From sequence record NC_107631.1: a stretch of 50,078 nt of DNA. One strand, 5' to 3'. Below, one piece after another: positions 14,687 through 46,903 of this stretch (the stretch's first letter is position 1; each line of letters starts with the position of its first letter). The position numbers were made by a program, and so were the translations under genes. A model generated the notes under the pieces. That model saw only the letters and a program-made list of their open reading frames with translations, did no database searches and was not told the DNA's origin. The DNA comes from a phage.

Positions 14687-15751
14687 TTACTTATTTTGGT
14701 AACGCACCCATGATGGCGTTTCAAGTTCGATCTCGCTTGCGTCGCCAGCGTACCCAGGCCAAACATCCATTTCAGAGCAAGCCTTGTAAGTGTGGACTAC
14801 GCTAATGTACTGGTTACGACCGATCCTGATTTGCTCCATAGTCATACGGTAAGCAAGTGCGATGTAAGGCTCTTTTTTCTCCTGCGTAAGCAATCGAACT
14901 ACGATCGGGATATCTTCCGGAAAGTTTCCTTCAAAAGCGCCAGCCTGGATTGCACGTCGTAGCAGGTCATGCTGCAAGGCCATTTTTAGATAATACCCGT
15001 GATTGTATGCCAGTCTAGGGAACTCTAACGGGTTAGCGCTCATCGTGGTTTTGAAGTCAGTGATAATTAGCGCTTCAGGGAAAATAACGTCTTCAAATAC
15101 CGGATCGCCGTTCTCATCATAACCAGTCAGCACGCGGCCTGGAACATTCTCTTTGTAGTCCAGATGGTCAAGACGAACCTTAACTTTGACGCCGGATATC
15201 TCACCGAAGATTGAGATCTCACGCTGAGCCGTCTCGCTATTGATGCACGCTTCATGATCCTGATTTTGCTCAAGGATTGCCCTCATCTTCATGCAGGCGT
15301 CGTATTTGTCAGCGTCAACCAATTTCTTTCCTTCAGCGCGCGCCTCGGCCTCAGCAATTAGTTCAATCAGATATTGGACGTTAAGGTCTTCACCACAATC
15401 AACCATCATTTTGATGAGGTCCGGGTACTGCTTACCGGATGTACCTTTCAGGCCGAATGATTTTAATTTAGATGCCAGCGCCGCCTGCGAAGTAATCAGA
15501 TCCTTAAACTCTGCCGGAGCCGGGCAACGGGCATACGATGCAGTAAACAGATCTCGGCTCTCAAAGTTGGTATGCGACTGAGTGCCGAACTCCAGCGCTT
15601 TCGTTGTCTCATTCTTCTTGAATCGCCAGTTAGCCGGGCAAGTTTGATAGATTTCTGCAAGGCTCGATCCGCTCACATACTCTGCCGCCCAACCTTCGTT
15701 GCTATGATACTCGTCATTAGAAAGCTGACTTGATGTGAATACCTGGAACAT
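14687..15751 (-). CDS. PD-(D/E)XK exonuclease (recombination partner of ERF)
   Basis: IITDFKTT motif of RecB/Cas4-type nucleases; first gene of an exo-erf-ssb operon; AGGAG RBS. Confidence 0.6.
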   Translation of the reverse strand: MFQVFTSSQLSNDEYHSNEGWAAEYVSGSSLAEIYQTCPANWRFKKNETTKALEFGTQSHTNFESRDLFTASYARCPAPAEFKDLITSQAALASKLKSFGLKGTSGKQYPDLIKMMVDCGEDLNVQYLIELIAEAEARAEGKKLVDADKYDACMKMRAILEQNQDHEACINSETAQREISIFGEISGVKVKVRLDHLDYKENVPGRVLTGYDENGDPVFEDVIFPEALIITDFKTTMSANPLEFPRLAYNHGYYLKMALQHDLLRRAIQAGAFEGNFPEDIPIVVRLLTQEKKEPYIALAYRMTMEQIRIGRNQYISVVHTYKACSEMDVWPGYAGDASEIELETPSWVRYQNK

Positions 15752-15782: not shown

Positions 15783-15810
15783 ATTATAGCCATTAACAGC
15801 GTTTAGTCAA
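15783..15810 (-). promoter_or_regulatory. strong sigma70 promoter for the recombination operon
   Basis: On minus strand TTGACT-N16-TATAAT. Confidence 0.55.
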
Positions 15811-26946: not shown

Positions 26947-26984
26947 ATAACCCCCTATATACGAAAAAACCGCCAAACGGCGGC

Positions 26985-27311
26985 TTAGTTGTTTTGCTTA
27001 GCAATCATTTCAAGCGCTTTCGCTTCCATGATCCTAACGTCCTGCAATGCCAGTTCTTCATCTTCTATTTTATAGATTTTGAACAACATAGGCAAAACAT
27101 TATAGTCAAGACCATAAGCTCCAGCGCCTGAACTTCTCCACTGAGTGAGCATTGACGTAAAAACATTCCACGCCTTCACCATTTCAGCATCGCCGATTAT
27201 CGTTTCCGGTTCCTCGTCTTCATAGTCAGAAAGACTGAGGCCAACCGATCTTAATTGCTCTTCTGTTGGCGGTTTCTGATATAACAGATAAACCGCCCTT
27301 TTTAGTTTTTT
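26985..27311 (-). CDS. tail assembly chaperone frameshift extension (GT-type -1 frameshift product)
   Basis: The -1 frame is open from slippery heptamer A-AAA-AAC at the 3' end of 27302..27619 through to 26985, just before the tape measure gene. Confidence 0.5.
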
Positions 27312-27619
27312 GCGCGGTGTCCTGCGAGCGCCTTGATGTAAGTTGCCGTCAGATTGTACGCTGCTGAAGGATAATACTGTACCAGTTTACGCGCATTCTC
27401 TTCGTTAAATTCTTCTTCCAGATTCCATCCTGATGCGATCTTAGTGATGAAATCGCTATCATTCATTTCGCCCTGCTTCGCATACATATCTTGCACTTCT
27501 TTACTGGAAAGGTGGCGTACTGTAAAAATAATAGTCGCATCCTCGCCGTTTGGCATGGTGAACGTCACCGGAAGTTTGAAGTCTGGAAGCTGCCCCAACA
27601 CGAAATTGAATTTAGCCAT
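27302..27619 (-). CDS. tail assembly chaperone (gpG-like)
   Basis: Position between major tail and tape measure genes; ends in slippery site; conserved CAACCAATCAGGAG RBS. Confidence 0.6.
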   Translation of the reverse strand: MAKFNFVLGQLPDFKLPVTFTMPNGEDATIIFTVRHLSSKEVQDMYAKQGEMNDSDFITKIASGWNLEEEFNEENARKLVQYYPSAAYNLTATYIKALAGHRAKN

Positions 27620-27640
27620 GATGTTTCTCCTGATTGGTTG

Positions 27641-27657
27641 ATAGCACTTTTTGTTAA
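27641..27657 (-). promoter_or_regulatory. dyad element immediately upstream of RBS
   Basis: TTAACAA-AAA-GTGCTAT on the coding strand, directly abutting CAACCAATCAGGAG. Confidence 0.5.
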
Positions 27658-27700
27658 AAGTTAAGTGAATAAAGTTGATAGGATGATTTTACAGAAATGA

Positions 27701-27726
27701 ATAAGGGGGCGCAAGCCCCCTATGGA
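27701..27726 (-). terminator. intrinsic terminator/attenuator
   Basis: GGGGGCTTGCGCCCCC hairpin followed by TTATT on minus strand. Confidence 0.5.
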
Positions 27727-27732
27727 TAGGAT

Positions 27733-28401
27733 TTAAGCACTAGGCGAGGCCAGAGTGGAGGAAATGAAAGTAAAGTCACCTTTCAGGGATACGGCGAGTT
27801 CCACCGTTTCCATTTCGTTAACCTGCGTGGATGGAATATCGTTAAACGACAAGATACCAGCCCACATACGCATTTCGCTTGCTTTCGGCACGTACATTCG
27901 AACCGCTGTCACCTGACCAGACGAATCCAGCTTGCGCAGAATCGGGTAGATCGGGTTATCAAATTCGTGCGCGAAAGTGTACGTTAGCGATACCGCAGAT
28001 TTAAACGTTGGGATCTGCTGCTCTTTATCGTCGGACAAACACTGATAAGTGTAATACTGCTGCTCGCCGCCGTCCTGACCAATCTCCTGTACGCAAGGAA
28101 TCTCAGTCCAGCCAGTAATTTTTGCAAAGCTCATTGTACCGCCAGCCGGGAAAACAAGAGTATCAGAGGTGTCAATTCCAGCAAGAGTGACGCTTGTTTC
28201 TTGAGCGTCAGTAACAATTAGCACTCGACTAACCATCTTAGCCCAAGTTGACTGAGTTACAATAACGTAATCGCCTTTTACTAAGTCACCTTTAGATGCA
28301 ACTGTAGCAACAGGATTATCTGCATTAGTGATAGCGGTCGCCTCAATCTCTACTCCGCGAGAGGTTTCCACGAAAATTTGCGCGCCATTTGGTAAGTGCA
28401 T
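27733..28401 (-). CDS. major tail protein
   Basis: Position upstream of chaperone/tape-measure genes; 222 aa. Confidence 0.6.
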   Translation of the reverse strand: MHLPNGAQIFVETSRGVEIEATAITNADNPVATVASKGDLVKGDYVIVTQSTWAKMVSRVLIVTDAQETSVTLAGIDTSDTLVFPAGGTMSFAKITGWTEIPCVQEIGQDGGEQQYYTYQCLSDDKEQQIPTFKSAVSLTYTFAHEFDNPIYPILRKLDSSGQVTAVRMYVPKASEMRMWAGILSFNDIPSTQVNEMETVELAVSLKGDFTFISSTLASPSA

Positions 28402-28402
28402 A

Positions 28403-28801
28403 TTAAGTCTCCTTTGTGTCTACTCGTACTGTAAAGCGAACCGGAATCATCCACCCGCTTTCATGTTTAACAATTTGATGCACGATTGCACCCTCGAAAA
28501 TATAACCAACGTTAAGCATTTTACCATCTTTGAAAAAATCAGCAATCTCTTTTGCTTTCAATCTTGCCTCGTCAACGCCGGAACCTGGAGGGAACACTAC
28601 GCCGATCTGAACGATTGCGATGTAAGATTTACACTTTCTGTCAATGGATAGATAAAGCGTATCCCCTTCAATGTAGTTGAACCTCAGCCACATCCCGCCA
28701 TCCTTCGGCGGTGTGAAATTTCTGTTTTCCATGTAGTGAGGAAAGTCTCTGTACTTTGATAGAAAAGCAGCTCGCGCCGCCGCTGATAACTCATAGTGCA
28801 T
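28403..28801 (-). CDS. putative tail completion / tail terminator protein
   Basis: Position only. Confidence 0.35.
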   Translation of the reverse strand: MHYELSAAARAAFLSKYRDFPHYMENRNFTPPKDGGMWLRFNYIEGDTLYLSIDRKCKSYIAIVQIGVVFPPGSGVDEARLKAKEIADFFKDGKMLNVGYIFEGAIVHQIVKHESGWMIPVRFTVRVDTKET

Positions 28802-29234
28802 TTTGCTGTCTCCTTGCCTGCTTGATTGCGTCAGCCATATATGATCTCAGCCTTAATGCCACAAGACCGACAACGCCGCTCGGTGCTTGCTGTGAATGAC
28901 CGTACTCAAGAGCGTTTGCATAAATCAACATGTTTGAAAAGTGAACTGATGTTATCGCGCCGCCACGGCTGAACATACCATAAGTTTTGGCCTGCTCCTC
29001 ACCTCTGACGACACCGCCAGTTTTATCGTATCGGTTTAATGCGTGGTTAGGGATTTCGTTAAAAGTTATCTGCCAGTTACCCTTGAATCGACCTGTATCA
29101 ACAGGGGAGCGGCTAACAAGAGCGTCGTGAACATCCCTTACGAATATCTCTATAGCGTGCTCTAGCGTGCTTTCAGCGGCCTTAATCCACGCATCAATCT
29201 CACCTTGAAATCTACGAATCTGATAATTAGCCAC
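28791..29234 (-). CDS. putative head-tail joining protein
   Basis: Position only. Confidence 0.35.
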   Translation of the reverse strand: MANYQIRRFQGEIDAWIKAAESTLEHAIEIFVRDVHDALVSRSPVDTGRFKGNWQITFNEIPNHALNRYDKTGGVVRGEEQAKTYGMFSRGGAITSVHFSNMLIYANALEYGHSQQAPSGVVGLVALRLRSYMADAIKQARRQQNAL

Positions 29235-29607
29235 CGACTGATACCCTCCTCAATACCGGACGATAGGCGACAGGCTCTAATGACGCCTGAACCGGACGGG
29301 CGTCAACGACAACATGACGAACGCCATCAATCTCTATATAGTCACCTTCGTTTATTTCATGATCATTATTGAAGATCCCCAAAATATCTGAGGCGCGGAT
29401 AGTTTCCCCGTCAATCTCACGCGCGTTCGGTCTTCGCGTCGCGCCGGATATTGGAATAACCTTTTCCATTGGTGGGATCTCGAATCCGTTTTCATCATAT
29501 CCGTATTCACCTTGTTTTATCAGGTTCATAGGTCTTGACGGATCGGTGAAGAAAGCCACGCCTTTGCGAGCCATCCTTTCAATCTGTGAGTAGTTCATTA
29601 GTGGCAT
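29227..29607 (-). CDS. putative head completion protein
   Basis: Position only. Confidence 0.35.
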   Translation of the reverse strand: MPLMNYSQIERMARKGVAFFTDPSRPMNLIKQGEYGYDENGFEIPPMEKVIPISGATRRPNAREIDGETIRASDILGIFNNDHEINEGDYIEIDGVRHVVVDARPVQASLEPVAYRPVLRRVSVGG

Positions 29608-30008
29608 CCTCCACGGAGTCCTGTCATTAATGCGAATCGACCACGTCGTCGCGCCTTAAGCTGTTCGAACATCTTACCCCACGGCGTCGAAAGCATCATG
29701 TTTCCTGACTGGTTCTTCGTCACCTCTCCGAAAGTCTGGCTAAATTCACCGCTCAGGGAGAATGACGTAACGCGTCGTGAGTACGATTCAAGATCCTCAT
29801 CTTCACCTTTTAGCGCCCCATCAAGGAAAGCAAGGTGCAATGCATAAAGAGAAAGCGCCTTGATGTATGCATCTTTAAAGGTCTTCTGGCATACAAATAG
29901 CTCAGCCATTTCTACCCACGCATAAAGCGTTTCGTCTGGAACCTTACGAAGTGCCGGAACCAGCTTTCGCATTTGCTCAACAACTGCAATTAAAGTTTCT
30001 TGATTCAT
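29598..30008 (-). CDS. putative head-tail connector protein
   Basis: Position only. Confidence 0.35.
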   Translation of the reverse strand: MNQETLIAVVEQMRKLVPALRKVPDETLYAWVEMAELFVCQKTFKDAYIKALSLYALHLAFLDGALKGEDEDLESYSRRVTSFSLSGEFSQTFGEVTKNQSGNMMLSTPWGKMFEQLKARRRGRFALMTGLRGGCH

Positions 30009-30051
30009 AATTTACCCCCATAAAAAAGGCGCTACATGAGCGCCTTGATGA

Positions 30052-30339
30052 TTAATATTCGCCGCCGTCCTCAAGCTCTTTAACGCTTTTGCTATCCCAC
30101 GGATCTGGCTTCTTGATCTTTGCCATTTCATCGCGGATTTTGCGGTTGGTTGCACTGTCGTCTTTAACTTCGATTTCTTCGCGAGCAATTAAGCAACGCA
30201 GGCCAGGTAAATCAAGAACGGAAGCCGGAAGCGTGACCTCTTCATCTGGAAGAACTTTAGCAAAGGAACCATCTTCAAGACGGAACATCTGAAGAGCTAC
30301 ACCAACGTTTACGATAACAACAGTTTTTTCTTTAGCCAT
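30052..30339 (-). CDS. hypothetical structural protein
   Basis: 95-aa ORF after the major capsid gene; preceded by hairpin-T7-GGAG module. Confidence 0.4.
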   Translation of the reverse strand: MAKEKTVVIVNVGVALQMFRLEDGSFAKVLPDEEVTLPASVLDLPGLRCLIAREEIEVKDDSATNRKIRDEMAKIKKPDPWDSKSVKELEDGGEY

Positions 30340-30389
30340 TTTGATTTCTCCAATAAAAAAAGGGACTAACTAAGTTAGCCCCTATAATA

Positions 30390-31349
30390 TTACACGCCAG
30401 TGATTAAGACAATAGTCATCGGGCGATAAATTGTAAGACCAGTACACTTAGAGGTGCAAGGCACTTTAAAGTGCAAGTCTTTCGGTTGTGCTGGCAGCAT
30501 GTTAAATGCTTCCGGGATCTCGATGGACATGTTCATCGGATTCTTTTCGTACACCAGTACGCCTTTAGTGCCTGCGCCGTCAATATCCTCAAGCTCTGCG
30601 ATAGAGTCGATTTCGATACCGGAGTTCTGAGACTTAAAATAGTCCAGGTAAGACATGGTTGTCTCAGGCATACGAATCGCCAAAACCTTACGCATGGAAG
30701 GCGGGATCAGGATGTTGGTAGCTCGGTGCTGGCCTCGAGTAATCGTCTCGATGGTTTCGATCGCCTGAGTCAATTCCGCTTCAGCCGTTTCCGGTTTCTG
30801 AGTTGCGCCATCCATCCACTTACCGGAGGTAATTTTGGTGATGTTTGGATGATTGAACACGGACACAATCTTGTGCGGCGCGGAACCTTTGAACACCAGG
30901 CGGTTAACAAGCTGATCATGCGCCAACTGGCACGCACTTGCCTTACGGGTTGACAGTGGGCGACCAGTTGCCTGACCTGCTTTGATTTCGTCGATTGAGA
31001 TCAGATACGCGTTACCCAGACGGAACACCTTGCCAAACTCAGAAGTACCCAGGGCATCAACAAGCGGCAGGTCATCGGTGTAGTCAGCGATAATCTGAGC
31101 CGTACCAACCTTATCAAAGGTCATGTATTCAAACGCCTTGTCGGTCGGAGATAGATCGGTTGTAACCGGGAATACGCGTAGAGCGGAGCCTACCGGGTAG
31201 TCTTCTTCATAGGACTGGCTTTTGATGCGGTGTAGTTCCTGAGCGGTCCAGATACCCATCGTTGCGGCTGCATCCTGTTTTACGCCAGCCTGGATCAGAT
31301 ACATTTCAACATTGCTTTTATCTGCTTCATCAAATTTTTTAGTAGTCAT
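30390..31349 (-). CDS. major capsid protein
   Basis: 319 aa; sits after a scaffold/protease-like gene and decoration-like genes; strong promoter plus 5' hairpin. Confidence 0.65.
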   Translation of the reverse strand: MTTKKFDEADKSNVEMYLIQAGVKQDAAATMGIWTAQELHRIKSQSYEEDYPVGSALRVFPVTTDLSPTDKAFEYMTFDKVGTAQIIADYTDDLPLVDALGTSEFGKVFRLGNAYLISIDEIKAGQATGRPLSTRKASACQLAHDQLVNRLVFKGSAPHKIVSVFNHPNITKITSGKWMDGATQKPETAEAELTQAIETIETITRGQHRATNILIPPSMRKVLAIRMPETTMSYLDYFKSQNSGIEIDSIAELEDIDGAGTKGVLVYEKNPMNMSIEIPEAFNMLPAQPKDLHFKVPCTSKCTGLTIYRPMTIVLITGV

Positions 31350-31400
31350 GATTACTTCTCCGTAGTTAATAAAAAAGCCGTGATTATGTTCACGGCTTCA

Positions 31401-31429
31401 ATAATAGCACTTTTTGTTAAAGCGTCAAA
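31401..31429 (-). promoter_or_regulatory. sigma70 promoter with embedded dyad element, upstream of the major capsid gene
   Basis: On minus strand TTTGAC-N17-TATTAT with TG extension; the spacer contains TTAACAA-AAA-GTGCTAT; followed by hairpin AAGCCGTG..CACGGCTT and T-run. Confidence 0.5.
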
Positions 31430-31440
31430 GTGTTTTTATG

Positions 31441-32208
31441 TTATACATCAACCCCTGGCGTTGGCACTGCTTCTACGCGATAAGCAATGGTTGCCGTCGT
31501 CTTGCTGGCATCGTTAGCCGTCCAGGTAATATTAAAATCACCGACTGACTCTCCACCAACAGGAGTTACAAGACCTGAGTCCGGATCGACAGTGGCGATA
31601 TTGGTAGCGTCGATTGACCATTTGCCAGTCTTATCAGTTGCATTAGCCGGAAGAGCATTAGCTACACACTGGATCGTAACATTGTTTGGTTGAGGACTTT
31701 CCTTGTCAGTGGTGACTGTAGCGGACTCAACAAGAACGACAGGGGGCGGCGGCGGTGGAACGATGAAAGCATTTTGTTTCACCTGAACCTCAATGACATA
31801 CCCGTCCTCGTGCTTAACAAAGCCGCCAGCAAAGGTCCATCCTGCGGAACCAGATCCACCAGTAACAACTCCACCAGCTCCAAACTGCAACTTTGAGAAC
31901 AAGCTGGGAGCCTCATCAAGAGAAGTAAGCGCCCACACTCGACCGTGAGAAACGACGCTGCACACTTCACCGTCGAGGATTTTACCGCTCAGATGTTCAT
32001 ATTGGGAACGGAAAGCGATACCGTAAGGAGTTCCACCATCAGAAAGCGCCGTAACAACTTTTACACCATCAACGATGCCGACAACCTGAACCGCTGAGCC
32101 GAACTCAATGTCACCTTGAGCCACGCAAGCGCCATCAATATTGTAGGTTGAAGTATCAGAAAGATTTCCCGGACACGCGGGGCGCAAGAACAAATTTTCG
32201 TAAGCCAT
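31441..32208 (-). CDS. putative head decoration protein with C-terminal Ig-like domain
   Basis: N-terminal domain paralogous to 32272..32748; poly-Pro linker then Ig-like beta domain. Confidence 0.5.
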   Translation of the reverse strand: MAYENLFLRPACPGNLSDTSTYNIDGACVAQGDIEFGSAVQVVGIVDGVKVVTALSDGGTPYGIAFRSQYEHLSGKILDGEVCSVVSHGRVWALTSLDEAPSLFSKLQFGAGGVVTGGSGSAGWTFAGGFVKHEDGYVIEVQVKQNAFIVPPPPPPVVLVESATVTTDKESPQPNNVTIQCVANALPANATDKTGKWSIDATNIATVDPDSGLVTPVGGESVGDFNITWTANDASKTTATIAYRVEAVPTPGVDV

Positions 32209-32271
32209 AATGATTTCTCCATAAAAAAAGGACTATCCAAAAAAAAGGATAGTCCCCATATTAAACGCTAA

Positions 32272-32748
32272 TTACAGTTGATGCAACTGAACCTCAACAA
32301 GCTGAATATCTTTGTATTTAGTCCAGCCGCCAGCGTAGGTCCAGGTTGTTTCGATTGTGCCATCAGATTTCTCTTGACCATCAACATCAAGTTTAACGGC
32401 AGAGCCGAAAGTTGGTGCTTCGGTGGATTTGGAAAGCATCCATACTCGGCCTGAAGTCATCACGTTGATAGCGCCGCCATCTTCGTAAATCATCTGATTT
32501 TGAGCGTTAACAGTCTGCCAGTGAGATCGGATTGCCACGCCGTAAGGAGTGGTTCCGGTAGTAAGAGCCTTAACCAACTTATGACCATCAACCGCCTGAG
32601 CTTGAACAACTTGTACGGCAGCGCCAACAAGAACATCACCTTCATTAACGACACAAGCGCCGTCAATATTGTACTTTGAAGTATCCGCAACCATGCCCGG
32701 AAGCGCAATCGCCATATCTCGCTGATAAGATGCATTAATTTGTGCCAT
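32272..32748 (-). CDS. putative head decoration / capsid accessory protein
   Basis: Shares N-terminal sequence with 31441..32208 (..YNIDGACV..VGAAVQVV..). Confidence 0.5.
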   Translation of the reverse strand: MAQINASYQRDMAIALPGMVADTSKYNIDGACVVNEGDVLVGAAVQVVQAQAVDGHKLVKALTTGTTPYGVAIRSHWQTVNAQNQMIYEDGGAINVMTSGRVWMLSKSTEAPTFGSAVKLDVDGQEKSDGTIETTWTYAGGWTKYKDIQLVEVQLHQL

Positions 32749-32759
32749 GATATTTCCCC

Positions 32760-33872
32760 TTACATTACTTTGCTTAAACGTGAATTTGGCGTAACAGGCG
32801 CGGAGTCGTTTTTCTCTTCCGGCTTACCGCCTTCGATAGAGTCGCCTTTTACTGCTTTACGCTGAATAGCCATGATATCAGAATCTTTAGCAACATCAAA
32901 CATAGCGTCGATATATGCGTCTGATTTTTCACTAACATCTTTATCAAGCATGGCTTTAACTACGGCAATCTTGACGTCTTTGATATCAAGACCATCATGT
33001 TTGACACCTGCGGTTTCTGCTACTGCGGTAACTTCTGCGCGTGCGGCGGCATCGGCTTTTTGCTTCTCTACCTCGGCTTTAACCAGTTCCGGCAGGGAGT
33101 CAACCTTAACCTTCAGCGCATCGCGCTCAGCTTCGAAGCCATCAGCTTTACCCTGAATGGTGGCAATCTGCGCGGTTAATTTTTCGATATGGTTTGCAAC
33201 TTCTTCGGTTACTTCCACATCAACTGAGTCGATCTTAATTTTTTTCATTTGCTTGTCCTCGTTAGTTAATTGAACGTTATTATCATACGGGAACTCCTGC
33301 TCGGCATCAAGATTTAATTTAGCAATTCCCGCACGACCTTTGAAAACAAGTGCAATATGGTTAACCTTGATATTAGTCTGTACCGCGTCAAATTTCACCC
33401 AGCCTTCAGGCGGCGCTTCGTCCTGTTTCATATCCTCTTCGAAGATGTATTCTCCAGTCTCATTTGAACCCCAACCAGGCTTATCAATATCAACCGAAGT
33501 ATAACCAACAGATAATTCACCTGCTTCTTTTGCTTTAGCTTTGCTGATCGCGTAGTCGCTGTAAATACTCAAAGGAACTTCAACGCCAACCCCTGAAGCA
33601 ATACCAGCGCCAGCACACGATCCGACAACAACGTCCTTAGCATTCTGCGGAGTTACCGTTACGTGACCGACAGTAATTGGCTTCCCTGCAAAACTTTGCA
33701 AGGACTCTTGCTTGAAAACTTCGGACGCCGGACGGAACTCAACGCGATCGCCGTGCGGAGTCTTGTAAACCTGAGCACCGATTCGCGCCACGATTGGGCG
33801 GTCAACTAAAAAACCGTTATCATCAAAGTGCGCCTTGATTTTTACCGAATCGAATCTTTGCTTTGCCTTCAT
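32760..33872 (-). CDS. putative prohead protease / scaffold protein
   Basis: Start moved to Met15 with AGAGAGG RBS; C-terminal coiled-coil scaffold-like region; position upstream of the capsid gene. Confidence 0.45.
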   Translation of the reverse strand: MKAKQRFDSVKIKAHFDDNGFLVDRPIVARIGAQVYKTPHGDRVEFRPASEVFKQESLQSFAGKPITVGHVTVTPQNAKDVVVGSCAGAGIASGVGVEVPLSIYSDYAISKAKAKEAGELSVGYTSVDIDKPGWGSNETGEYIFEEDMKQDEAPPEGWVKFDAVQTNIKVNHIALVFKGRAGIAKLNLDAEQEFPYDNNVQLTNEDKQMKKIKIDSVDVEVTEEVANHIEKLTAQIATIQGKADGFEAERDALKVKVDSLPELVKAEVEKQKADAAARAEVTAVAETAGVKHDGLDIKDVKIAVVKAMLDKDVSEKSDAYIDAMFDVAKDSDIMAIQRKAVKGDSIEGGKPEEKNDSAPVTPNSRLSKVM

Positions 33873-33886
33873 TTTTAACCTCTCTT

Positions 33887-34639
33887 TTATGTGAATGCCG
33901 GAACAGCCCAACATCGGCAGTTGTATTCCTCGCCCGGGAATACGTGATCGGAGTCTACCGCTATGCGCTTACCTTCCCATCTTACATGTTTTTCACGTTC
34001 GCGTAAATCCATCACCCCGCGCCAGAAATAGTAAGAGACACCAGCGTCTTTTATGCGCTGCCGCATCAGTCTACTGTTCCAGGTTCCGACAATTCCCGAC
34101 GCCCTGTTTTTGGCCCAGCTTCGGTAAATACCAAATCGCTCCTTAGCCAGTTCAACAACAAAATCCTTGCTTTTACCCTGACCGGATGCCGCACGAAGTT
34201 TATCAGTGAAATCAGTAACCATGTTGGCGGCAAATTTCCTGATAGAAGTAGTCACCTGCGATCGCCACAGATTATATTGTCCTGAGTACCAGCTTTCGGC
34301 AGCGGTAGGACCAATCAGGGCAAGTAGCATCACGGCTTGATTCTTCTTACCTCCAGCATTGCGAGCGATACGCAGCCACTGCTTAGAGTTGAATTTATAG
34401 ATCGTTAGCGCAACGGATGATAGAGAACCAATAATCGGAGCGATGAGTGATTCAACGTAATCAAGCAATGACCTTTCCGTCTGATCTATCTCTTCGTCGG
34501 TAGCGTCAAATTTCATCGGCTTTAATTCGTCACGCATTTTTTCAGTTAGTTTGGCTGCTACATCCTGTAGGGAGCGCGACATTGCGCGCTCGCTCATTTC
34601 AGGGTAGCGCCACTGTGTTGCAACGCCATTAATTTTCAT
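33887..34639 (-). CDS. minor head protein (Mu F / SPP1 gp7-like head morphogenesis)
   Basis: Position directly after the portal gene; C-terminal CRCW motif. Confidence 0.55.
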   Translation of the reverse strand: MKINGVATQWRYPEMSERAMSRSLQDVAAKLTEKMRDELKPMKFDATDEEIDQTERSLLDYVESLIAPIIGSLSSVALTIYKFNSKQWLRIARNAGGKKNQAVMLLALIGPTAAESWYSGQYNLWRSQVTTSIRKFAANMVTDFTDKLRAASGQGKSKDFVVELAKERFGIYRSWAKNRASGIVGTWNSRLMRQRIKDAGVSYYFWRGVMDLREREKHVRWEGKRIAVDSDHVFPGEEYNCRCWAVPAFT

Positions 34640-35939
34640 CTTCTAACTTCTCCCCTAATCCCGGTTCCGGCTCGGTTGTTTCTTCCGGTTCGCGAATGTT
34701 GATGTTATTACCATCCTTGAGTTTGAACTCAGGGGCAATGGATCGCAACGTGTCGCGAGCTTCTTCCAGATCGATGATTTGCTCAGTGATAGCCTTCGTT
34801 ACTGACTCAACGTTATTCTTCGTGATCTCTGATTCCTCTTTCTTACTCGGAACAGACAAAGGCTCAAACTCGATCGACCACTCTTCCTCATCAACAATGA
34901 ACGGCAACAAGAACTCAAGAAGCGGCCTGTAATCTTCCTCGCGCTTGCGATCGACTAGCTTATAGAAAGTCTCAAGTGCTGTGTTTTGGCTCGCTGATAC
35001 GCCGCCTACGTTCTTATTCTTGATGATAATCTCATGAATCCCGGATAGGGAGACGATGCGGTCCATCTTGCTTGATAAGAACTCAGGAACTCCGCTGATA
35101 TCAGAGTTGAGAACGTCATATTCCTCAGTCTCAGCATCGATACCGATCGCACGGCCTACGCCGGAGTTATCATCAACCTGAGCAAGTCTCAGTCGCGCGG
35201 CATACTGAGCATCATCATCATCACACATTTCAGCAAGACCTTTGACCTTCCATACAGCCTGTTGCTTACGTCGCAAGATCTGAGTAGCCAGAGATTCACA
35301 GTAATCATAGTCACAGATTGCATCAATCAGTGACTTGTTCAATACCGAAGCTCCCCATCCTTGATTCTGCTTTCTTGCCTGTTGCGTTACTCGTTCACCA
35401 TCAGCAATAAAGACTCTTGAGTGATGAATCAGATACGGCTGCATATTGTCGCCAGGGGATACCTTGTAAATTTCAGGCTCACCATAGCGAGGAGATCTTG
35501 CATTGGTGACTCGCTTTTCAACAGTGATAGCAAATCGATCGTAAACTCGGACGCCTTCAAGTTTAGCTCCAGGCTTTGCCTGACTGGTTAACATCCGGTT
35601 GTCGTTGATGATTGCCACCATCGCCGCGCCACCGTAAAGTCGCGCCCAACAAAGAAGATCCACCAGACTTGAATCAAGTTTGTAGCTATCCCATAAAGAC
35701 TTGAACTCTTTTTCATCCTTAACGCCTGACATTTTAAAACCAGCCGTCACCATCTCTTCCGGGATAACATCCACAATTCGCTTCGCGGTTGCGTTGTCGT
35801 TGTAGAAAGAACCGACGTGATATGATGCATCAGACATAAAGAATGGCTTAGGCGATCCGTCCGCGCCGCCGTTAAAGATATCGTTATATCCATCATGCTT
35901 AACAATTTTCATGTTTCCTCCAATAAAAAGGGCCGTCAA
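34629..35939 (-). CDS. portal protein
   Basis: 436 aa immediately downstream of the large terminase; acidic C-terminus. Confidence 0.7.
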   Translation of the reverse strand: MTALFIGGNMKIVKHDGYNDIFNGGADGSPKPFFMSDASYHVGSFYNDNATAKRIVDVIPEEMVTAGFKMSGVKDEKEFKSLWDSYKLDSSLVDLLCWARLYGGAAMVAIINDNRMLTSQAKPGAKLEGVRVYDRFAITVEKRVTNARSPRYGEPEIYKVSPGDNMQPYLIHHSRVFIADGERVTQQARKQNQGWGASVLNKSLIDAICDYDYCESLATQILRRKQQAVWKVKGLAEMCDDDDAQYAARLRLAQVDDNSGVGRAIGIDAETEEYDVLNSDISGVPEFLSSKMDRIVSLSGIHEIIIKNKNVGGVSASQNTALETFYKLVDRKREEDYRPLLEFLLPFIVDEEEWSIEFEPLSVPSKKEESEITKNNVESVTKAITEQIIDLEEARDTLRSIAPEFKLKDGNNINIREPEETTEPEPGLGEKLEDEN

Positions 35940-35966
35940 TTGACAGCCCTAATTATATCTCATTTA

Positions 35967-37535
35967 TTACCGCTTAACCATCCCGGCGAGTCGCTTCATT
36001 CTCTCGATAGGATCATCAATGGTCAGCAATTCGATGTTCGCCGCATCCATGAAGTTATCGACGATATCATCATGCGGGTGGGTGTCATCGTAAGTAAAGG
36101 CGCTATGTTCTGCGATGATTTCCGCAAGCATAGGGTGCTCTTCTGGAAGAACCACGCGACCAGCCTTAATGACTGGCTGAGCATCCATCGCTCGGGTAAC
36201 TTTATCCTTGTTACGCTGCAATGGAGTGATAGAGATCGGAGTCTTCTTCCTGAGATTCTGGATTAAGCCCGTACCGCTTGCTTTGTCTTCCACGTAGATT
36301 TTACGAAGCACGCCCATTGATTTATTGTGCCTCCATGCCTGATTGACGAAAGCTGTAAATTGCCTCTCCATATCCGGCGCTTCCCACTTTCCGCGAATGC
36401 CGTCGATAAAGTAAACCTTATCATTCTTCTTGCCCCACAAACAAAATACCGTGTAGTCGTTTAGCTCGCCTGTCTTCTGAGCGGTATCGGCAGTGATGAA
36501 TCGGTAATCATATTTACCCGGATCTGGCTCGTCAGCGTCAAGACTGCTGCCGTAATAAGTCCACCACTCTGAGTTAAACACTGAGCCACCCAGCGCGATC
36601 GGTTTCTGCTGATACTGAGAATCAAAGGTATACTGATCTGCTTCTCGTAACGCTAACAGGTCGTGAACGCTTTCCTTGCTGGGCCAAAAAGAGTAATGCT
36701 TAACGCCATCCAATTCTACATACTCAGACGATAAAACATCACGCTCAAAGTAAGGCTGCAACCAATCAGGAAGCGTCTTTCCGTATTCTTCAGTAACCAG
36801 CGCCGGGATTGAGATTTGGTCAAACTCAATACCCATCCCGCCATTCATCATGAACCAGGTTGAATCCTGAGCATGCAGTCGTTGCTGAATTGCAATAATA
36901 GGCGTCTCGTTATGCATACGACGGGATCGAATGGTGTTTTTCAATAGCATGTGCGTACGCTCACGCTTAACCTTTGAGAACATATCATCAGGCTTGTCGA
37001 TATCGTCGAGCATTACCATCCCTGAGAATCCCGGCATCATGTAGCCACCACGCGAACCAGTAATACGACCGCCAGCCGCTGCGGATATCAACTCAAACCA
37101 AACCTTTCCGTCACTATTCAGAACCTGAATCTCTTCGTCTTTAGATGTGCCGAACTTGCAGGGCCATAGCTCCTGGAATTCGTTGCTGCTGATAATCTCA
37201 CGAACGCGCTTACTGTTACGCTTCACCAGGCTGTCGGCAAACGACACGTTAAGGTTACGAATCTTTTTACACTTAAGCATTGCGTACACCGGGAGGTGGA
37301 TTGAGAATATCTCAGTTTTTGATGATCCTGGCGTTACGTTAAAGATGGTGTTACCGCGACGACCCGCAACAATCTCTTCAGCCTCATGACACAAGTAAAT
37401 GTGATGCCAGTTCATTGAGTATTTTTGCGCCTGCATAATCTGGAACCATGCCCTAATCATTCCAGAGAAGCTTGCCTCAGATATTTTCTTTATAGCCAGC
37501 TTCTCAAGATTGTTTAACTCTTCCCATTGCAACAT
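35967..37535 (-). CDS. terminase large subunit
   Basis: 522 aa; ATPase-like N-terminus and nuclease-like C-terminus (..FITADTA..DYTVFCLWG..); followed by portal. Confidence 0.85.
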   Translation of the reverse strand: MLQWEELNNLEKLAIKKISEASFSGMIRAWFQIMQAQKYSMNWHHIYLCHEAEEIVAGRRGNTIFNVTPGSSKTEIFSIHLPVYAMLKCKKIRNLNVSFADSLVKRNSKRVREIISSNEFQELWPCKFGTSKDEEIQVLNSDGKVWFELISAAAGGRITGSRGGYMMPGFSGMVMLDDIDKPDDMFSKVKRERTHMLLKNTIRSRRMHNETPIIAIQQRLHAQDSTWFMMNGGMGIEFDQISIPALVTEEYGKTLPDWLQPYFERDVLSSEYVELDGVKHYSFWPSKESVHDLLALREADQYTFDSQYQQKPIALGGSVFNSEWWTYYGSSLDADEPDPGKYDYRFITADTAQKTGELNDYTVFCLWGKKNDKVYFIDGIRGKWEAPDMERQFTAFVNQAWRHNKSMGVLRKIYVEDKASGTGLIQNLRKKTPISITPLQRNKDKVTRAMDAQPVIKAGRVVLPEEHPMLAEIIAEHSAFTYDDTHPHDDIVDNFMDAANIELLTIDDPIERMKRLAGMVKR

Positions 37536-38079
37536 TTTTCAACTCCCCTTCATTAAATGACCTTTCACACAAGTTTTCATGAATTTCTAATTTCGCTTTC
37601 GCGTATGCTGCTCTACATTCTTCCGGAGTGTCAAAATAACCAATGAATGTTACCTTGCCTTTCCTCTTAATCCTGCAATGCCATCGACCAACCCTTTTCT
37701 CAAAATATCCACCAGCAATATCATTGCAATCTCTATTCTGCTGATTCCTCATCGCGTCAGTTTCTTGCAGGTTTTTTACTGCATTGTTTTGTCTGTCACC
37801 ATCAATGTGATCTATTTTTTCAGGCCATACCCCATAATGAAGGAACCACACCACGCGATGAGCAAAAAACCTCCTACCCCTACTACCGCGCTGACCTCTA
37901 AAATAACCGTCTTTAGTAACCTCCCTGAATGCGACGGAGTTTTCCTTATTCCTATGAAACATGTTCTTAAATCTCAATGATGTAGGTGATGATTCGTCGT
38001 AATATACGTGATCCAACAACCACGCCTCATCATCTGCACTTACTTCTCTTGCTAATCCTGTGTTCATAGTCAAACCCAT
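37504..38079 (-). CDS. HNH endonuclease between terminase subunit genes
   Basis: IDHIDGDRQNNAVKNL motif and AP2-like tail; overlaps the large terminase start. Confidence 0.75.
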   Translation of the reverse strand: MGLTMNTGLAREVSADDEAWLLDHVYYDESSPTSLRFKNMFHRNKENSVAFREVTKDGYFRGQRGSRGRRFFAHRVVWFLHYGVWPEKIDHIDGDRQNNAVKNLQETDAMRNQQNRDCNDIAGGYFEKRVGRWHCRIKRKGKVTFIGYFDTPEECRAAYAKAKLEIHENLCERSFNEGELKNVAMGRVKQS

Positions 38080-38107
38080 AAAATGTTACCCATCCGTGGG
38101 TAAGATA

Positions 38108-38632
38108 CTACAGCAATCCAATAACCTTGTCTACCGCGTCCTTCATTGCATCCTCAGTAGTGGCGACCACTGTCGATGCGGAGGCTGACGAGTTTTCGAT
38201 ATTTATTGAGGCTGGCTTATCGATTCCGAGATCCTTACCGATAAAGGAGGCATTAATAACACCGTTGGCGGCAAGCTGAAATTTTTGCTCGTTGATTACG
38301 GATTCCACGAACTCCATAACCTCACTGTATTCTTCCTCACGCTTCCACTTAATGATTGCGGCCTCGCTTGCACCGATAAATAGTCGGTATCCGGTCCAGG
38401 TGAAGACGCGCGGCTTATGAACAAGCGATTCATAAACGCCACCCTGAAAGCTGGCTGATTCTGACGCCTTTATCGCATTGTCTTCAGCCCATTCGAAATA
38501 CTTAACTGACAGATCGAATAGTTGCTCAGGCGTCATTGCCCGGTTCTTCGCAAGAACAGTGCCGAACTTTTTCTTGTATAGCTCTTTGAAATTACCTCCC
38601 TGAACAACGGGGGCGTTCTTAGGTTCACTCAT
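38108..38632 (-). CDS. putative terminase small subunit
   Basis: Position upstream of the large terminase; start moved to Met9 with AGAGGG RBS. Confidence 0.45.
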   Translation of the reverse strand: MSEPKNAPVVQGGNFKELYKKKFGTVLAKNRAMTPEQLFDLSVKYFEWAEDNAIKASESASFQGGVYESLVHKPRVFTWTGYRLFIGASEAAIIKWKREEEYSEVMEFVESVINEQKFQLAANGVINASFIGKDLGIDKPASINIENSSASASTVVATTEDAMKDAVDKVIGLL

Positions 38633-38649
38633 AAATCCATCCTCTTTGT

Positions 38650-38666
38650 TTAACATTTAGTGCTAT
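38650..38666 (-). promoter_or_regulatory. dyad element just upstream of the putative TerS RBS
   Basis: TTAACAT-TTA-GTGCTAT on plus strand; TGGTAAAAT extended -10-like sequence adjacent on minus strand. Confidence 0.4.
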
Positions 38667-38682
38667 TTTACCATATTGCAGG

Positions 38683-38712
38683 CATAAAAAAACCCGCCGG
38701 AGCGGGTTAGTG
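38683..38712 (-). terminator. intrinsic terminator
   Basis: ACCCGCCGGAGCGGGT hairpin with A7 on plus strand. Confidence 0.55.
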
Positions 38713-38716
38713 TTTA

Positions 38717-38944
38717 TCACGACAATAGTCGTTTAATGCCTTTAGGGTGGGTCTTAGCTTTAGAATAGCAGTGAGCAAGGTCGCCAGTCATTTCCCATTG
38801 GTCCCTCTTAGGTGAGTAGGTCAGCCATACACCAGTTTTATCCTTCGCGTCCATCGCAATTGCTGCCGCAACAAGTGCGAAGCCAGCAAACAAACCAGCA
38901 CCAAAAATAACAACACCAGCGATAATCAATAAAAAAATTGTCAT
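38717..38944 (-). CDS. small membrane protein
   Basis: N-terminal transmembrane helix (IFLLIIAGVVIFGAGLFAGFALVAAAIA). Confidence 0.45.
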   Translation of the reverse strand: MTIFLLIIAGVVIFGAGLFAGFALVAAAIAMDAKDKTGVWLTYSPKRDQWEMTGDLAHCYSKAKTHPKGIKRLLS

Positions 38945-38945
38945 G

Positions 38946-39131
38946 TTAAATCTCCTTGATTAATTCAATATTTATTTTGTGAGTGTCAAAGTTAGCGCCG
39001 GAAAGTTTTTTTGCTTTCGTGATGGCTTCTGCCTGACTGGTTGCTGATAATTCAGTTTCGAAAGATTGCTTGCACGACTGGCAAAACATTCCCATCTTTC
39101 GAATAATTAATTTAACTTTGAATCGCTTCAT
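38946..39131 (-). CDS. hypothetical small protein
   Basis: 61 aa; contains a C-x-x-C pair. Confidence 0.4.
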   Translation of the reverse strand: MKRFKVKLIIRKMGMFCQSCKQSFETELSATSQAEAITKAKKLSGANFDTHKINIELIKEI

Positions 39132-39273
39132 CTTCCTGCGCCTTAATCATAACGCCAGCAATGCGACCAATAACAGCCTCGCCAGGATTTAATCGTTTTT
39201 TATAACGAGTGGTTTCACCGTTGCGAGTTACTTTAATTTCAATTTTGACTGATTCATCTTTAGTGTTTTGCAT
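39111..39273 (-). CDS. hypothetical small protein (about 53 aa), not in ORF track
   Basis: ATG 9 nt after AGAGGA; coordinates approximate. Confidence 0.3.
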
Positions 39274-39449
39274 TATGCAATCCTCTTGAATTTTTGCCGC
39301 TTACGGGTCTGCGGCGTTGCTTAACCACTATGCAACCGAGCTTGTTAGCTGGAAGTGTGAGAATCGTCTCACGCGTTGCGACTAATTGCGCCTCGTCTGT
39401 CTACGTGATTAATACTATCACCGCTCAGGGACGTAGGTCAATCATTAAT

Positions 39450-39641
39450 TTAGAATTGTCCCTTAGTCATATCCTGCGGGTAATCAATCTCATGCAAGTT
39501 TCCATCATCCCCGTACACGAATACAAGTCTCTTTGATTTACTAACCTTTTCTACGTCGTACGCGCACCCCGCCGAGAAAGCATTACCATTGCGTGAAGTG
39601 ACACATCTAACCTGATCGCCTTTCTTCGGTAAATTAGCCAT
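39450..39641 (-). CDS. hypothetical protein
   Basis: 63-aa ORF in compact same-strand array. Confidence 0.45.
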   Translation of the reverse strand: MANLPKKGDQVRCVTSRNGNAFSAGCAYDVEKVSKSKRLVFVYGDDGNLHEIDYPQDMTKGQF

Positions 39642-39871
39642 TATTCGTAATCCCCTTCTTTGTTACCTACGCGCCCTGCAATATACCCGGCAGTCCATAC
39701 AAATTTGTATCGGTCGATGAGTAGCTCGACCTTTTTGTGGTGAGTCGATATTACATCAATCATGATCTTATCGTTTTTGCGATCTTCTTTCTTCATGCCG
39801 CTGACGAATTTATTTAATTCTTTAGCTGCGCGCTTTACTACGTTCCATTCTGCCTCGCTTAAACCGAACAT
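39641..39871 (-). CDS. hypothetical protein
   Basis: 76-aa ORF; start/stop overlap with neighbours. Confidence 0.45.
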   Translation of the reverse strand: MFGLSEAEWNVVKRAAKELNKFVSGMKKEDRKNDKIMIDVISTHHKKVELLIDRYKFVWTAGYIAGRVGNKEGDYE

Positions 39872-40215
39872 TATTTACCTCTCCCAAATGAAAAATTAAC
39901 ACCTAAAACCTGATTGCAAACCGACTCCATGTATCGCAACTGGTATTGAGCAACCTTTGAAGGACTTAATTCATCGGTAAATAAATCCTCAACATTTATT
40001 TCTTTTTTATGCTTGCGCTTCCATGCCTTGATGATATTTGGCAGGATTCGCTCGCTCTTCCAGGCTGCAAACTCAGATTGATTCGTTGATGCCGGGGTAA
40101 ACTGCCTTTCGATCTGGTTAAGAAGTTCGGCGGCAGCGCCTTTTACGTGAAGCTGTTCACCAATCGTGTCCAAGAGTTCGCGAGCTTGTTTCTCTGACAA
40201 GTTAATCGTAATCAT
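39871..40215 (-). CDS. hypothetical protein
   Basis: 114-aa ORF, translationally coupled. Confidence 0.45.
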   Translation of the reverse strand: MITINLSEKQARELLDTIGEQLHVKGAAAELLNQIERQFTPASTNQSEFAAWKSERILPNIIKAWKRKHKKEINVEDLFTDELSPSKVAQYQLRYMESVCNQVLGVNFSFGRGK

Positions 40216-40421
40216 GCCTCTTCTCCTTCTTCTTCGATCGGGGTAAAGAACTGCGTTTTAGTTTCCTGGTTGTAATAAACACCTTCGTCATAATCGCTTT
40301 CTTTTACTGCGATAAAAACATCACAGCCGTCATGCATAAAGTCGCCGCTGTCAGTTTCAATCAGCTCGAATATCTCAGAAGTTTTAGTGCAAGTGAAAAA
40401 CTTATCAGTTGATACCATCAT
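40212..40421 (-). CDS. hypothetical acidic small protein
   Basis: 69 aa; preceded by a dyad-motif promoter cassette. Confidence 0.45.
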   Translation of the reverse strand: MMVSTDKFFTCTKTSEIFELIETDSGDFMHDGCDVFIAVKESDYDEGVYYNQETKTQFFTPIEEEGEEA

Positions 40422-40453
40422 TTTGATTTTCTCTCTTCGTTGTCGATGAGGTA

Positions 40454-40497
40454 ACTATATCAAATCACCCCATCGACGTTTTAGCAATTCGTGCTAT
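40454..40497 (-). promoter_or_regulatory. dyad-motif middle promoter
   Basis: ATAGCAC-GAA-TTGCTAA; TGaTATAGT extended -10 28 nt downstream inside inverted repeat GTCGATG..CATCGAC. Confidence 0.55.
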
Positions 40498-41066
40498 TTA
40501 TTGATGAACGTGGCGGCTATGTGCTGAGCGGTAATTTCTGGATGGCCTTCGACAGAAAAGAAGTCACATTCCTGATAACCGTTGACCCCAATCATATCGT
40601 CCAGGTAGATATAGTCTCGACTGTCATTATCGAAGTTGCAACCGTTGCGATGTATTCGACATAGCTTTACCTGGATATCACCTTCAATCATCTGCAATAT
40701 TTCATCTTTGAATCCACCATCAGTAAATACCGAAAGGGAGTGAGACTCTTTCACCTTGCTTTCCGCTCGCATACCGAAGAAGCGATTTCCGAACTGCGGC
40801 TTGATGACTTCCTCGCTAATCCAGATCATAAACTGGCGAGGGCTTTTACCGTTCAGGATTGATGCTGGCTCTTCTTTATATCGACGGTCCTCATACAAGA
40901 ACATGAAATACTCGTAGTTAGCTTCACCCAGGATTGCCCGGGCAATCTCAAACATTGGCGCTTTGAAGCTGCGCAAGGCTACGTGATCGTAAGTGTCAGC
41001 CAGGATGCATCCGATAGTGTCTTTTCCCGCGCCAGGTGCGCCGTTTAAAATGATAGCTGTTTTCAT
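40494..41066 (-). CDS. P-loop kinase, polynucleotide kinase-like
   Basis: Walker A ILNGAPGAGKDT resembling the T4 Pnk N-terminal kinase domain; AGGGAG RBS. Confidence 0.55.
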   Translation of the reverse strand: MKTAIILNGAPGAGKDTIGCILADTYDHVALRSFKAPMFEIARAILGEANYEYFMFLYEDRRYKEEPASILNGKSPRQFMIWISEEVIKPQFGNRFFGMRAESKVKESHSLSVFTDGGFKDEILQMIEGDIQVKLCRIHRNGCNFDNDSRDYIYLDDMIGVNGYQECDFFSVEGHPEITAQHIAATFINK

Positions 41067-46859: not shown

Positions 46860-46903
46860 ACTATACCAAGCTATCCCGATCCAGCTTTAACAAAAAGTGC
46901 TAT
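46860..46903 (-). promoter_or_regulatory. dyad-motif middle promoter (cassette family A)
   Basis: ATAGCAC-TTT-TTGTTAA then TGgTATAGT 28 nt downstream inside inverted repeat GGGATA..TATCCC. Confidence 0.55.

Follow-up and report, generated by a model that had tools for sequence, protein, structure and literature searches.

Why should a phage keep a stretch without a gene in an array in which the genes otherwise abut one another? The gap that raises this question occupies positions 39274-39449 of the window (the whole 50,078-nt stretch of phage DNA that was analysed). The window belongs to a T1-like coliphage (Tunavirus, Drexlerviridae), and ~1 kb around the gap is 93-95% identical to Tunavirus coliphages. 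T1 is one of the classic coliphages, and to our knowledge the scheduling of its transcription is still essentially unknown. All genes around the gap are on the minus strand, and the gap lies exactly between the start of an orf57-like gene (39112-39273) and the stop codon of an orf58-like gene (39450-39641), in agreement with a sequence-only reading of this DNA that had described a non-coding island with no credible ORF in a dense gene array. Conservation of the gap is at least as high as that of the flanking genes: in comparison with IME18, identity is 97.7% in the gap and 94.6% in the surrounding 1 kb. A plus-strand ORF of 80 aa (39294-39536) is open across the gap in all Tunavirus relatives checked. 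At the corresponding place, stops are found in all three frames in 7 of the 11 other-genus loci checked, and variable sites fall at codon positions 1/2/3 in a ratio of 6/8/4, with no enrichment at the third position. Interrupted in most other genera and free of codon-position bias, this ORF is unlikely to be a gene.

On the minus strand, the orf57-like gene is the first gene after the gap and is followed by an orf56-like gene (38946-39131), an orf55-like gene (38717-38944) whose product has one transmembrane segment, TerS (38108-38656), an HNH/AP2-type homing endonuclease gene (37504-38079), and TerL (35967-37535). TerS and TerL are adjacent in T1 and IME18, without the HNH gene that stands between them here. 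The longest TerS ORF starts at 38656; an ATG at 38632, preceded by the RBS AAGAGGA (38646-38640), matches the annotated start in T1, and this shorter form is probably the real one. The products of orf55, orf56, and orf57 all fall into PHROG families without an assigned function. The orf56-like protein of 61 aa carries a CxxC motif (GMxCxxC) and has a weak, sub-threshold Pfam HMA match (E = 0.0024). In its AlphaFold model (pLDDT 79.6), the fold is beta-beta-alpha-beta, for which the PDB offers no significant neighbour (best E = 0.066). The AlphaFold model of the orf57 product is of low confidence. Finally, a polynucleotide kinase/phosphatase gene lies ~2 kb upstream of the gap.

A promoter and a structured leader on the minus strand

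By consensus scan and conservation, the gap contains a -35 hexamer, TTGACC (39441-39436), and an extended -10 hexamer, TAGTAT (39417-39412), on the minus strand; they are separated by an 18-nt spacer (39418-39435) that holds the motif CTGAgcGG(TGA), which places a TG just upstream of the -10 hexamer. Judged by its sequence, this near-consensus sigma-70 promoter (TTGACC, 18 nt, TGa-TAGTAT) should start transcription, and it is the sole candidate in the gap; the consensus scan found no promoter-like site on the plus strand. The promoter features recur in 54/54 distinct homologous upstream regions, with an unvarying distance to the RNA core: the -35 hexamer is TTGACN in 51 of these regions and TTGCAT in three, the spacer measures 17-18 nt in relatives with CTGAnnGG kept across most genera, and the -10 element TAnnnT ends 4 nt before position 1 of our covariance model, a distance that is fixed in other genera as well. 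From the distance to the -10 hexamer, transcription is predicted to start at ~39405/39404 on the minus strand, and the predicted leader from this start to the orf57 ATG is ~131 nt long. The window has two other near-consensus sigma-70 promoters with CGT(R)(R)ACA at the predicted start, at 31428-31374 and 15810-15751, both on the minus strand. The motif at 31428 sits within a terminator hairpin, while the start motif of the promoter at 15810 continues as CGTAAACAAAGGAG-N9-ATG before the gene at 15751.

The predicted RNA begins with a single-stranded, purine-rich 5' end, GUAGACAGACGAG (39392-39405), which contains a Shine-Dalgarno (SD)-like GAGG and follows a consensus, CGT(A/G/T)(A/G/T)ACAnAAGAG, that is conserved family-wide; by sequence, this motif resembles a usual start-plus-SD module from which the start codon is missing. 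Hairpin H1 follows (GCGC-AAUUAG-UCGC, 39391-39378), the innermost pair of which is a C-U mismatch in this phage. Across 62 distinct sequences, 97.5% of the cells in H1 are paired and all 4 of its 4 pairs show a compensatory change. A linker, AACG(C) (39373-39377), in which AACG or AAAG is nearly invariant, connects H1 to hairpin H2 (GUGAGA-CGAU-UCUCAC, 39372-39357), in which 100% of the cells are paired and 4 of the 5 modelled pairs show a compensatory change, with stem variants such as GCAGC/GCUGC, GCAUC/GAUGC, GCGGC/GCCGC, and GUGGC/GCCAC. Further downstream, a conserved UCG (39339-39337) precedes hairpin H3 (GUUGC-AUAGUGGUUAA-GCAAC, 39316-39336), which is directly abutted by hairpin H4 (GCCGC-AGACCCGUAA-GCGGC, 39315-39296). 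The H3 loop pattern AU(A/U)GUG(R)..AA is common to Tunavirus, Vilniusvirus, Nouzillyvirus, and Rogunavirinae, and the H4 loop follows the pattern A-N1-3-CCGUAA, with the CCGUAA end present family-wide. The leader closes with a tail, AAAAAUUCA (39274-39295), that includes a conserved A..AUUCA and the orf57 RBS AAGAGGA (39287-39281). This phage and its Tlsvirus-like relatives have no U-tract after H4 and thus no attenuator within the leader.

Several of these elements had been noticed on the DNA level by the sequence-only reading. Two of the three hairpins that it listed, GTGAGA..TCTCAC and GCCGC..GCGGC, are H2 and H4, respectively, and both are conserved. The third, GGGAC..GTCCC (39428-39432 with 39458-39462), covers both the -35 box and the stop codon of orf58; T1 and SA30RD do not keep it, and it is therefore best read as chance. 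The degenerate dyad GCGAC-TAA-TTGCGCC is real and conserved as hairpin H1; since genera differ in its sequence but keep the pairing, it does not qualify as a conserved palindromic DNA operator.

Support for H1 and H2 comes from a covariance model of the core, R1, built on CGTAGACA-nAAGAG-[H1]-AACG-n-[H2]. In the model-fitted alignment of 62 distinct sequences, 98.8% of the cells in H1 and H2 are paired and changes on both sides occur in 8 of 9 pairs; the covariation score of 0.658 compares with ≤0.07 for controls in which the partner was slid. An unfitted MAFFT alignment of ten diverse leaders gave similar values (97.8% paired, 6 of 9 pairs compensatory, and a score of 0.674 vs ≤0.12 for the slid controls), and RNAalifold recovered both H1 and H2 from it. 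When read as minus-strand RNA, H1 and H2 show G-U as opposed to A-C combinations in a ratio of 10 to 1, and this excess of G-U on the gene strand fits a sense transcript. In the 3' module, MAFFT misplaces gaps, and H3 and H4 were therefore counted by script. For H3, 12 distinct stems are paired at 54/54 positions, and for H4, 8 distinct stems are paired at 40/40 positions with 3 of 5 pairs covarying, both counts being partly circular in that the stems were found by a search for pairing. The same script found the abutting pair of H3 and H4 in all Tunavirus-, Vilniusvirus-, Nouzillyvirus-, Tlsvirus-, Braunvirinae-, and Rogunavirinae-like leaders. In the JLA23 clade, UCG before H3 and CCG in the H4 loop switch jointly to UCC and CGG, a hint, from a single covarying pair in a single clade, of a 3-bp pseudoknot between the two elements. 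The folding energy of the gene strand does not exceed chance (z = -0.85), and that of the plus strand lies modestly above shuffles (z = -2.33), so that it is covariation across genera, and not thermodynamic stability, that lifts the hairpins above chance. Altogether, these sequence comparisons make it very probable that the gap consists of a minus-strand promoter and a structured leader that is under selection on the sense strand.

Conservation of the leader and variation in what follows it

We compared TerS-anchored loci from Rogunavirus, Braunvirinae, Nouzillyvirus, Webervirus, Tlsvirus, and Kyungwonvirus together with 80 IMG/VR loci, and in every locus fetched there is a non-coding gap, separated from TerS downstream by a few small genes. 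R1 matches once in 84 of the 90 sources; each match shares the strand of TerS and precedes that gene by 0.5-1.2 kb, and the one in the window lies at 39407-39351 and scores 66.8 bits. Five of the six negative sources have no upstream DNA, and the sixth (L189) has a diverged copy of the leader, read by eye, ahead of six tRNA genes. Nothing unrelated scored above 15.9 bits in 0.88 Mb of other viral DNA. Rogunavirus-type matches score 16.7 bits and therefore rest on synteny and inspection rather than on their score. In Rfam 15, no family reached its gathering score over the whole window, and in a local search at E up to 10 the best hit, to an archaeal snoRNA model, had 15.9 bits compared with a cut-off of 50, with no tRNA match. 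We found no homologue of the leader in 5,426 E. coli genomes or in plasmids. A 19-mer from H4 had eight matches in bacterial genomes, all in high-GC bacteria with no core motif nearby, which we regard as chance; a 14-mer scan of viral contigs likewise returned mostly chance matches, although it was useful after filtering and later served as a negative control for R1. The public records of related phages that we examined carry no promoter or RNA annotation at this place, and the literature on Drexlerviridae transcription, antitermination, and small RNAs yielded nothing relevant. The leader RNA and its promoter are real and conserved, and they are apparently undescribed.

What follows the conserved core varies between lineages. 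In the leaders of type B genera (for example L149, L150, L152, L159, L163, L167, L181, and L200), the 5' tail, H1, and H2 are followed by a long GC-rich hairpin, a longer counterpart of H4, with CCGUAAGA in its loop and then by 4-8 U, with the RBS only 1-2 nt further; this hairpin and U-tract constitute an intrinsic terminator. Webervirus-like leaders are only ~55 nt long, and part of them have a U-rich stretch after H2 (UUUUAUU in some). The gene that comes next also differs: it is orf57 in Tunavirus, Tlsvirus, and others, orf56 directly elsewhere, a tRNA-Ser(GCT) gene in Vilniusvirus, a tRNA-Arg gene in Braunvirinae and Rogunavirinae, and a set of six tRNA genes in L189, an IMG/VR phage. The leader is kept whatever comes next, and orf56 and orf55 are encoded downstream of it in every genus inspected. 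On the gene orders compared, the slot between leader and orf56 (39112-39273 in the window, 1425-1512 in L003, 2634-2711 in L128, and 1820-2467 in L189) is a hot spot for gene insertion or tRNA capture.

The unit headed by the leader has a well-marked end. A strong intrinsic terminator, AACCCGCUCCGGCGGG-U7 (38708-38686, minus), which is annotated in T1, closes the orf57-orf56-orf55 unit, and a terminator of the form AACCCGC-loop-GCGGG-U7 is present between orf55 and TerS in nearly all related loci inspected. Just before TerS lies an extended -10 promoter, TGGTAAAAT (38673-38665, minus), which bounds the unit and is not part of the leader; the pattern TGnTAnnnT is found ~12-18 nt past the terminator in most related loci inspected (~12 nt in the window). 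With this terminator and a promoter of its own for TerS, the leader heads a self-contained unit. Many further terminators are found along the late genes.

Possible functions of the leader

We tentatively favour a model whereby the leader is a cis-acting element that controls termination or elongation, a reading that we hold with less than even confidence and that builds on a predicted start site and a conjectured mechanism. In this model, host sigma-70 RNA polymerase would start at ~39405/39404 on the minus strand and transcribe the first ~131 nt as a non-coding leader, the promoter-proximal core of which (the 5' end, H1, and H2) would let RNA polymerase, or a protein of phage or host origin, dock. 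This docking would then decide whether the polymerase passes the terminators downstream. In several genera, the first of these would be the leader's own intrinsic terminator, a few bases before the first RBS, while in the phage studied here, with no U-tract after H4, transcription would read through into orf57 and the first terminator to be met would be the one before TerS. We favour cis control because the core has a fixed place right after the start, because terminators follow in all lineages, either within the leader or at the end of the unit, because the leader is kept regardless of the first downstream gene, and because conservation extends to the promoter spacer and to the initially transcribed sequence. 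Several observations count against it. The conserved promoter of TerS means that the late genes need no read-through from the leader, and the conserved terminator-plus-promoter module before TerS weakens late-operon antitermination as the sole explanation. Unlike boxB or put, the helices H1 and H2 have only 4-6 bp and their loops vary, and no antiterminator protein is annotated in T1. By inspection, we saw no mutually exclusive terminator and antiterminator pairings in the leader.

The conserved single-stranded 5' end and the terminator of other genera fit a trans-acting small RNA equally well. Such an RNA, either stand-alone or derived from the leader, with the unpaired 5' end GUAGACAnAAGAG as its seed, is the main rival to cis control and, in our view, a possible but doubtful one. 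Of the antisense or small RNA that the sequence-only reading had proposed, the antisense RNA is unsupported, and a sense leader or a small RNA derived from it is supported. In many genera, the locus has the outline of a small RNA gene, with its own promoter, a structured RNA, and then a U-tailed terminator, and in other genera a tRNA directly follows the leader; the 3' end would be made by the terminator in type B and some Webervirus-like phages and by RNase P at the tRNA in Vilniusvirus, Braunvirinae, and Rogunavirinae. In Tunavirus, it would be made by endonuclease cleavage within the AUUCA tail; the leader of this phage is followed by neither a terminator nor a tRNA, and no signal for a 3' end is evident. 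The most conserved part is the unpaired 5' end, and possible A-R-N triplets for the distal face of Hfq are present between H2 and the terminator hairpin in type B (AAC/AAG, ACAACAAC) and between H2 and H3 in this phage (CUAACAAG). However, a search for phage targets with ≤3 mismatches gave four sites, one of which is the site itself, compared with 2.4 expected, and none of them goes beyond chance. Moreover, the 5' motif resembles the start-plus-SD module of other promoters in this phage, and its occurrence at the promoter at 15810 tempers both the cis-acting and the small-RNA readings. That SD-like element, AAGAGG/GAGG, is conserved at ~+11 to +16 with no start codon after it, and it would be at home in a 5' UTR whose role is to stabilise an mRNA or tRNA precursor, or to raise its translation, by 30S binding near the 5' end or by protective hairpins, with no role in transcription control. 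Strong expression at this place, as suggested by the tRNA genes that the slot behind the leader attracts, would suit such a UTR. Nevertheless, ~13 unpaired nucleotides at the 5' end are a poor shield against 5'-end-dependent decay, four covarying helices and conserved loop motifs (CCGUAA, AUUGUGAAA) exceed the needs of a stabiliser, and the leader-internal terminators of other genera do not fit, and we therefore consider a purely stabilising UTR unlikely.

The tRNA genes at this place also bring up a degenerate tRNA gene or remnant, possibly a decoy for tRNA-targeting host enzymes, in which H3 and H4 would correspond to the D arm and the anticodon arm. The loop of H3, AUAGUGGUUAA, is similar to a D loop, tRNA genes have an insertion hot spot in the slot, the polynucleotide kinase/phosphatase gene is ~2 kb away, and a sensitive BLAST search with the gap reached annotated tRNA-Ser genes of Vilniusvirus-like phages. 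These BLAST matches reflect synteny and not homology. The tRNA occupies the place of orf57, and in NBD2 the opening 17 nt of the tRNA-Ser line up with the RBS and ATG of orf57 in the window (AAGAGGATTGCATAATG); no more than the first 9-12 nt of the tRNA fall within the match, which otherwise covers the homologous non-coding leader upstream. It was this Vilniusvirus-like alignment that gave the first view of the conserved -35/-10 pair on the gene strand and of compensatory changes in the hairpins. The sequence-only reading had found no tRNA-like T-loop, and the RNA has neither an acceptor nor a T arm; in addition, the H4 loop has 8-10 nt and not 7, the Rfam tRNA models do not match, and ARAGORN finds no tRNA gene anywhere in the window, making a tRNA remnant very unlikely. 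Even less probable is a plus-strand promoter or dyad operator driving an antisense RNA, as put forward by the sequence-only reading. The somewhat better folding of the plus strand relative to shuffles (z = -2.33) is in its favour, but the gap has its one promoter-like site on the minus strand, where it is conserved in 54/54 regions, the G-U pairs (10 vs 1) are on the minus strand as well, and it is the pairing of the dyad that is conserved and not its sequence. We likewise give almost no weight to a site acting as DNA, either pac or a replication origin. Only ~0.6 kb separates the gap from TerS downstream, and a location within or close to terS is common for pac sites; in T1 and T1-like phages, however, pac has been located at the genome end between divergent early units (PMC7718038), which by the T1 map is ~7.5 kb away in T1 coordinates. 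There is no change in GC skew at the gap, arguing against an origin, and the strand-asymmetric G-U pairs together with the promoter point to RNA.

Relation to known regulatory RNAs

Among known systems, the layout of the leader is similar to that of put in phage HK022. The put sites (putL and putR) are cis-acting antiterminator RNAs that bind RNA polymerase, act as nascent RNA, give passage through terminators by way of the beta-prime zinc-binding domain, and need no dedicated phage protein; putL starts just after PL. As in put, two promoter-proximal stem-loops (H1 and H2, ~14 nt after the predicted start) are followed by terminators, a likeness in layout only. Unlike the leader, in which H1 and H2 have 4-6 bp and variable loops, put is ~70 nt long with two long irregular stems and a triple helix, and the setting differs in that T1-like late genes have their own promoter. 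A search with R1 of the HK022 immunity/early region (26000-40751) at E up to 10 gave no match, and Rfam itself holds no put model. The action of put has been reported to be independent of the RNA staying tethered to the polymerase (PMC9378689); an untethered mode of action would be compatible with a downstream tRNA being cut out of the leader transcript.

The late region of lambda offers a second parallel. Similar to the pR'/6S RNA/tR' arrangement on which Q acts, the locus has a constitutive-looking promoter upstream of packaging genes, a conserved promoter spacer and initially transcribed region, and, in many genera, a short leader with a terminator. Unlike the Q region, the first 25 nt of the leader have no conserved -10-like pause element (TAnnnT), and the leader of this phage is without a terminator. 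In contrast to lambda nut, where N acts through boxA and boxB, the leader alignments contain no conserved boxA-like block (CGCUCUUA / GCUCUUUAACAA), and the H1 loops differ in both length and sequence between genera, unlike boxB. Neither a Q nor an N homologue is annotated in T1. Riboswitch and attenuator leaders share with this RNA a conserved multi-helix 5' domain followed by platforms that vary between lineages, with a terminator in some, but the leader has no Rfam match, inspection showed no alternative antiterminator pairing, and the downstream genes give no hint of a ligand. Finally, enterobacterial genes for Hfq-type small RNAs resemble the locus in having their own promoter, an unpaired conserved 5' end, and, in many genera, a U-tailed terminator, and they differ from it in that the RNA of this phage continues into coding genes without a terminator.

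We speculate, as a bolder extension that we think is rather unlikely to hold in full, that the leader represents a new class of phage riboregulator across Drexlerviridae, either a polymerase-loading RNA or a sensor domain, that gates a tRNA-capturing unit. In one version, the RNA would load, by itself or together with a small protein of the phage, on E. coli RNA polymerase and cause it to ignore terminators, and if so it would be a second, unrelated example of the put principle. In the other version, it would be a sensor domain, possibly with the UCG/CCG pseudoknot. A leader that modifies RNA polymerase or senses a signal would amount to a new RNA mechanism in a well-studied host, while one that is only a stabilising 5' UTR would still be useful to annotate and would supply phage engineering with a promoter and leader that are strong and portable. 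In either case, a promoter and a four-helix leader beside the packaging genes provide a concrete and testable handle on the regulation of transcription in T1.

Outside the gap, the window contains an intergenic repeat, ATAGCACnnnTTG(C/T)TAAA, in about 16-18 copies, none of which lies within 39274-39449. Copies are found on the minus strand near 46903, 45249, 44509, 43886, 42312, 41792, 40497, 38666, 11587, 10045, and 7536 and on the plus strand near 27641, 31404, 47912, 49471, and 49991. The same 21-nt repeat was described in the TLS genome paper, in which its function is listed as an open question (PMC11447400). Many copies have an extended -10 element (TGnTAnnnT) ~20-25 nt downstream, and, from this arrangement of sequences, the repeat may be part of a phage promoter class.
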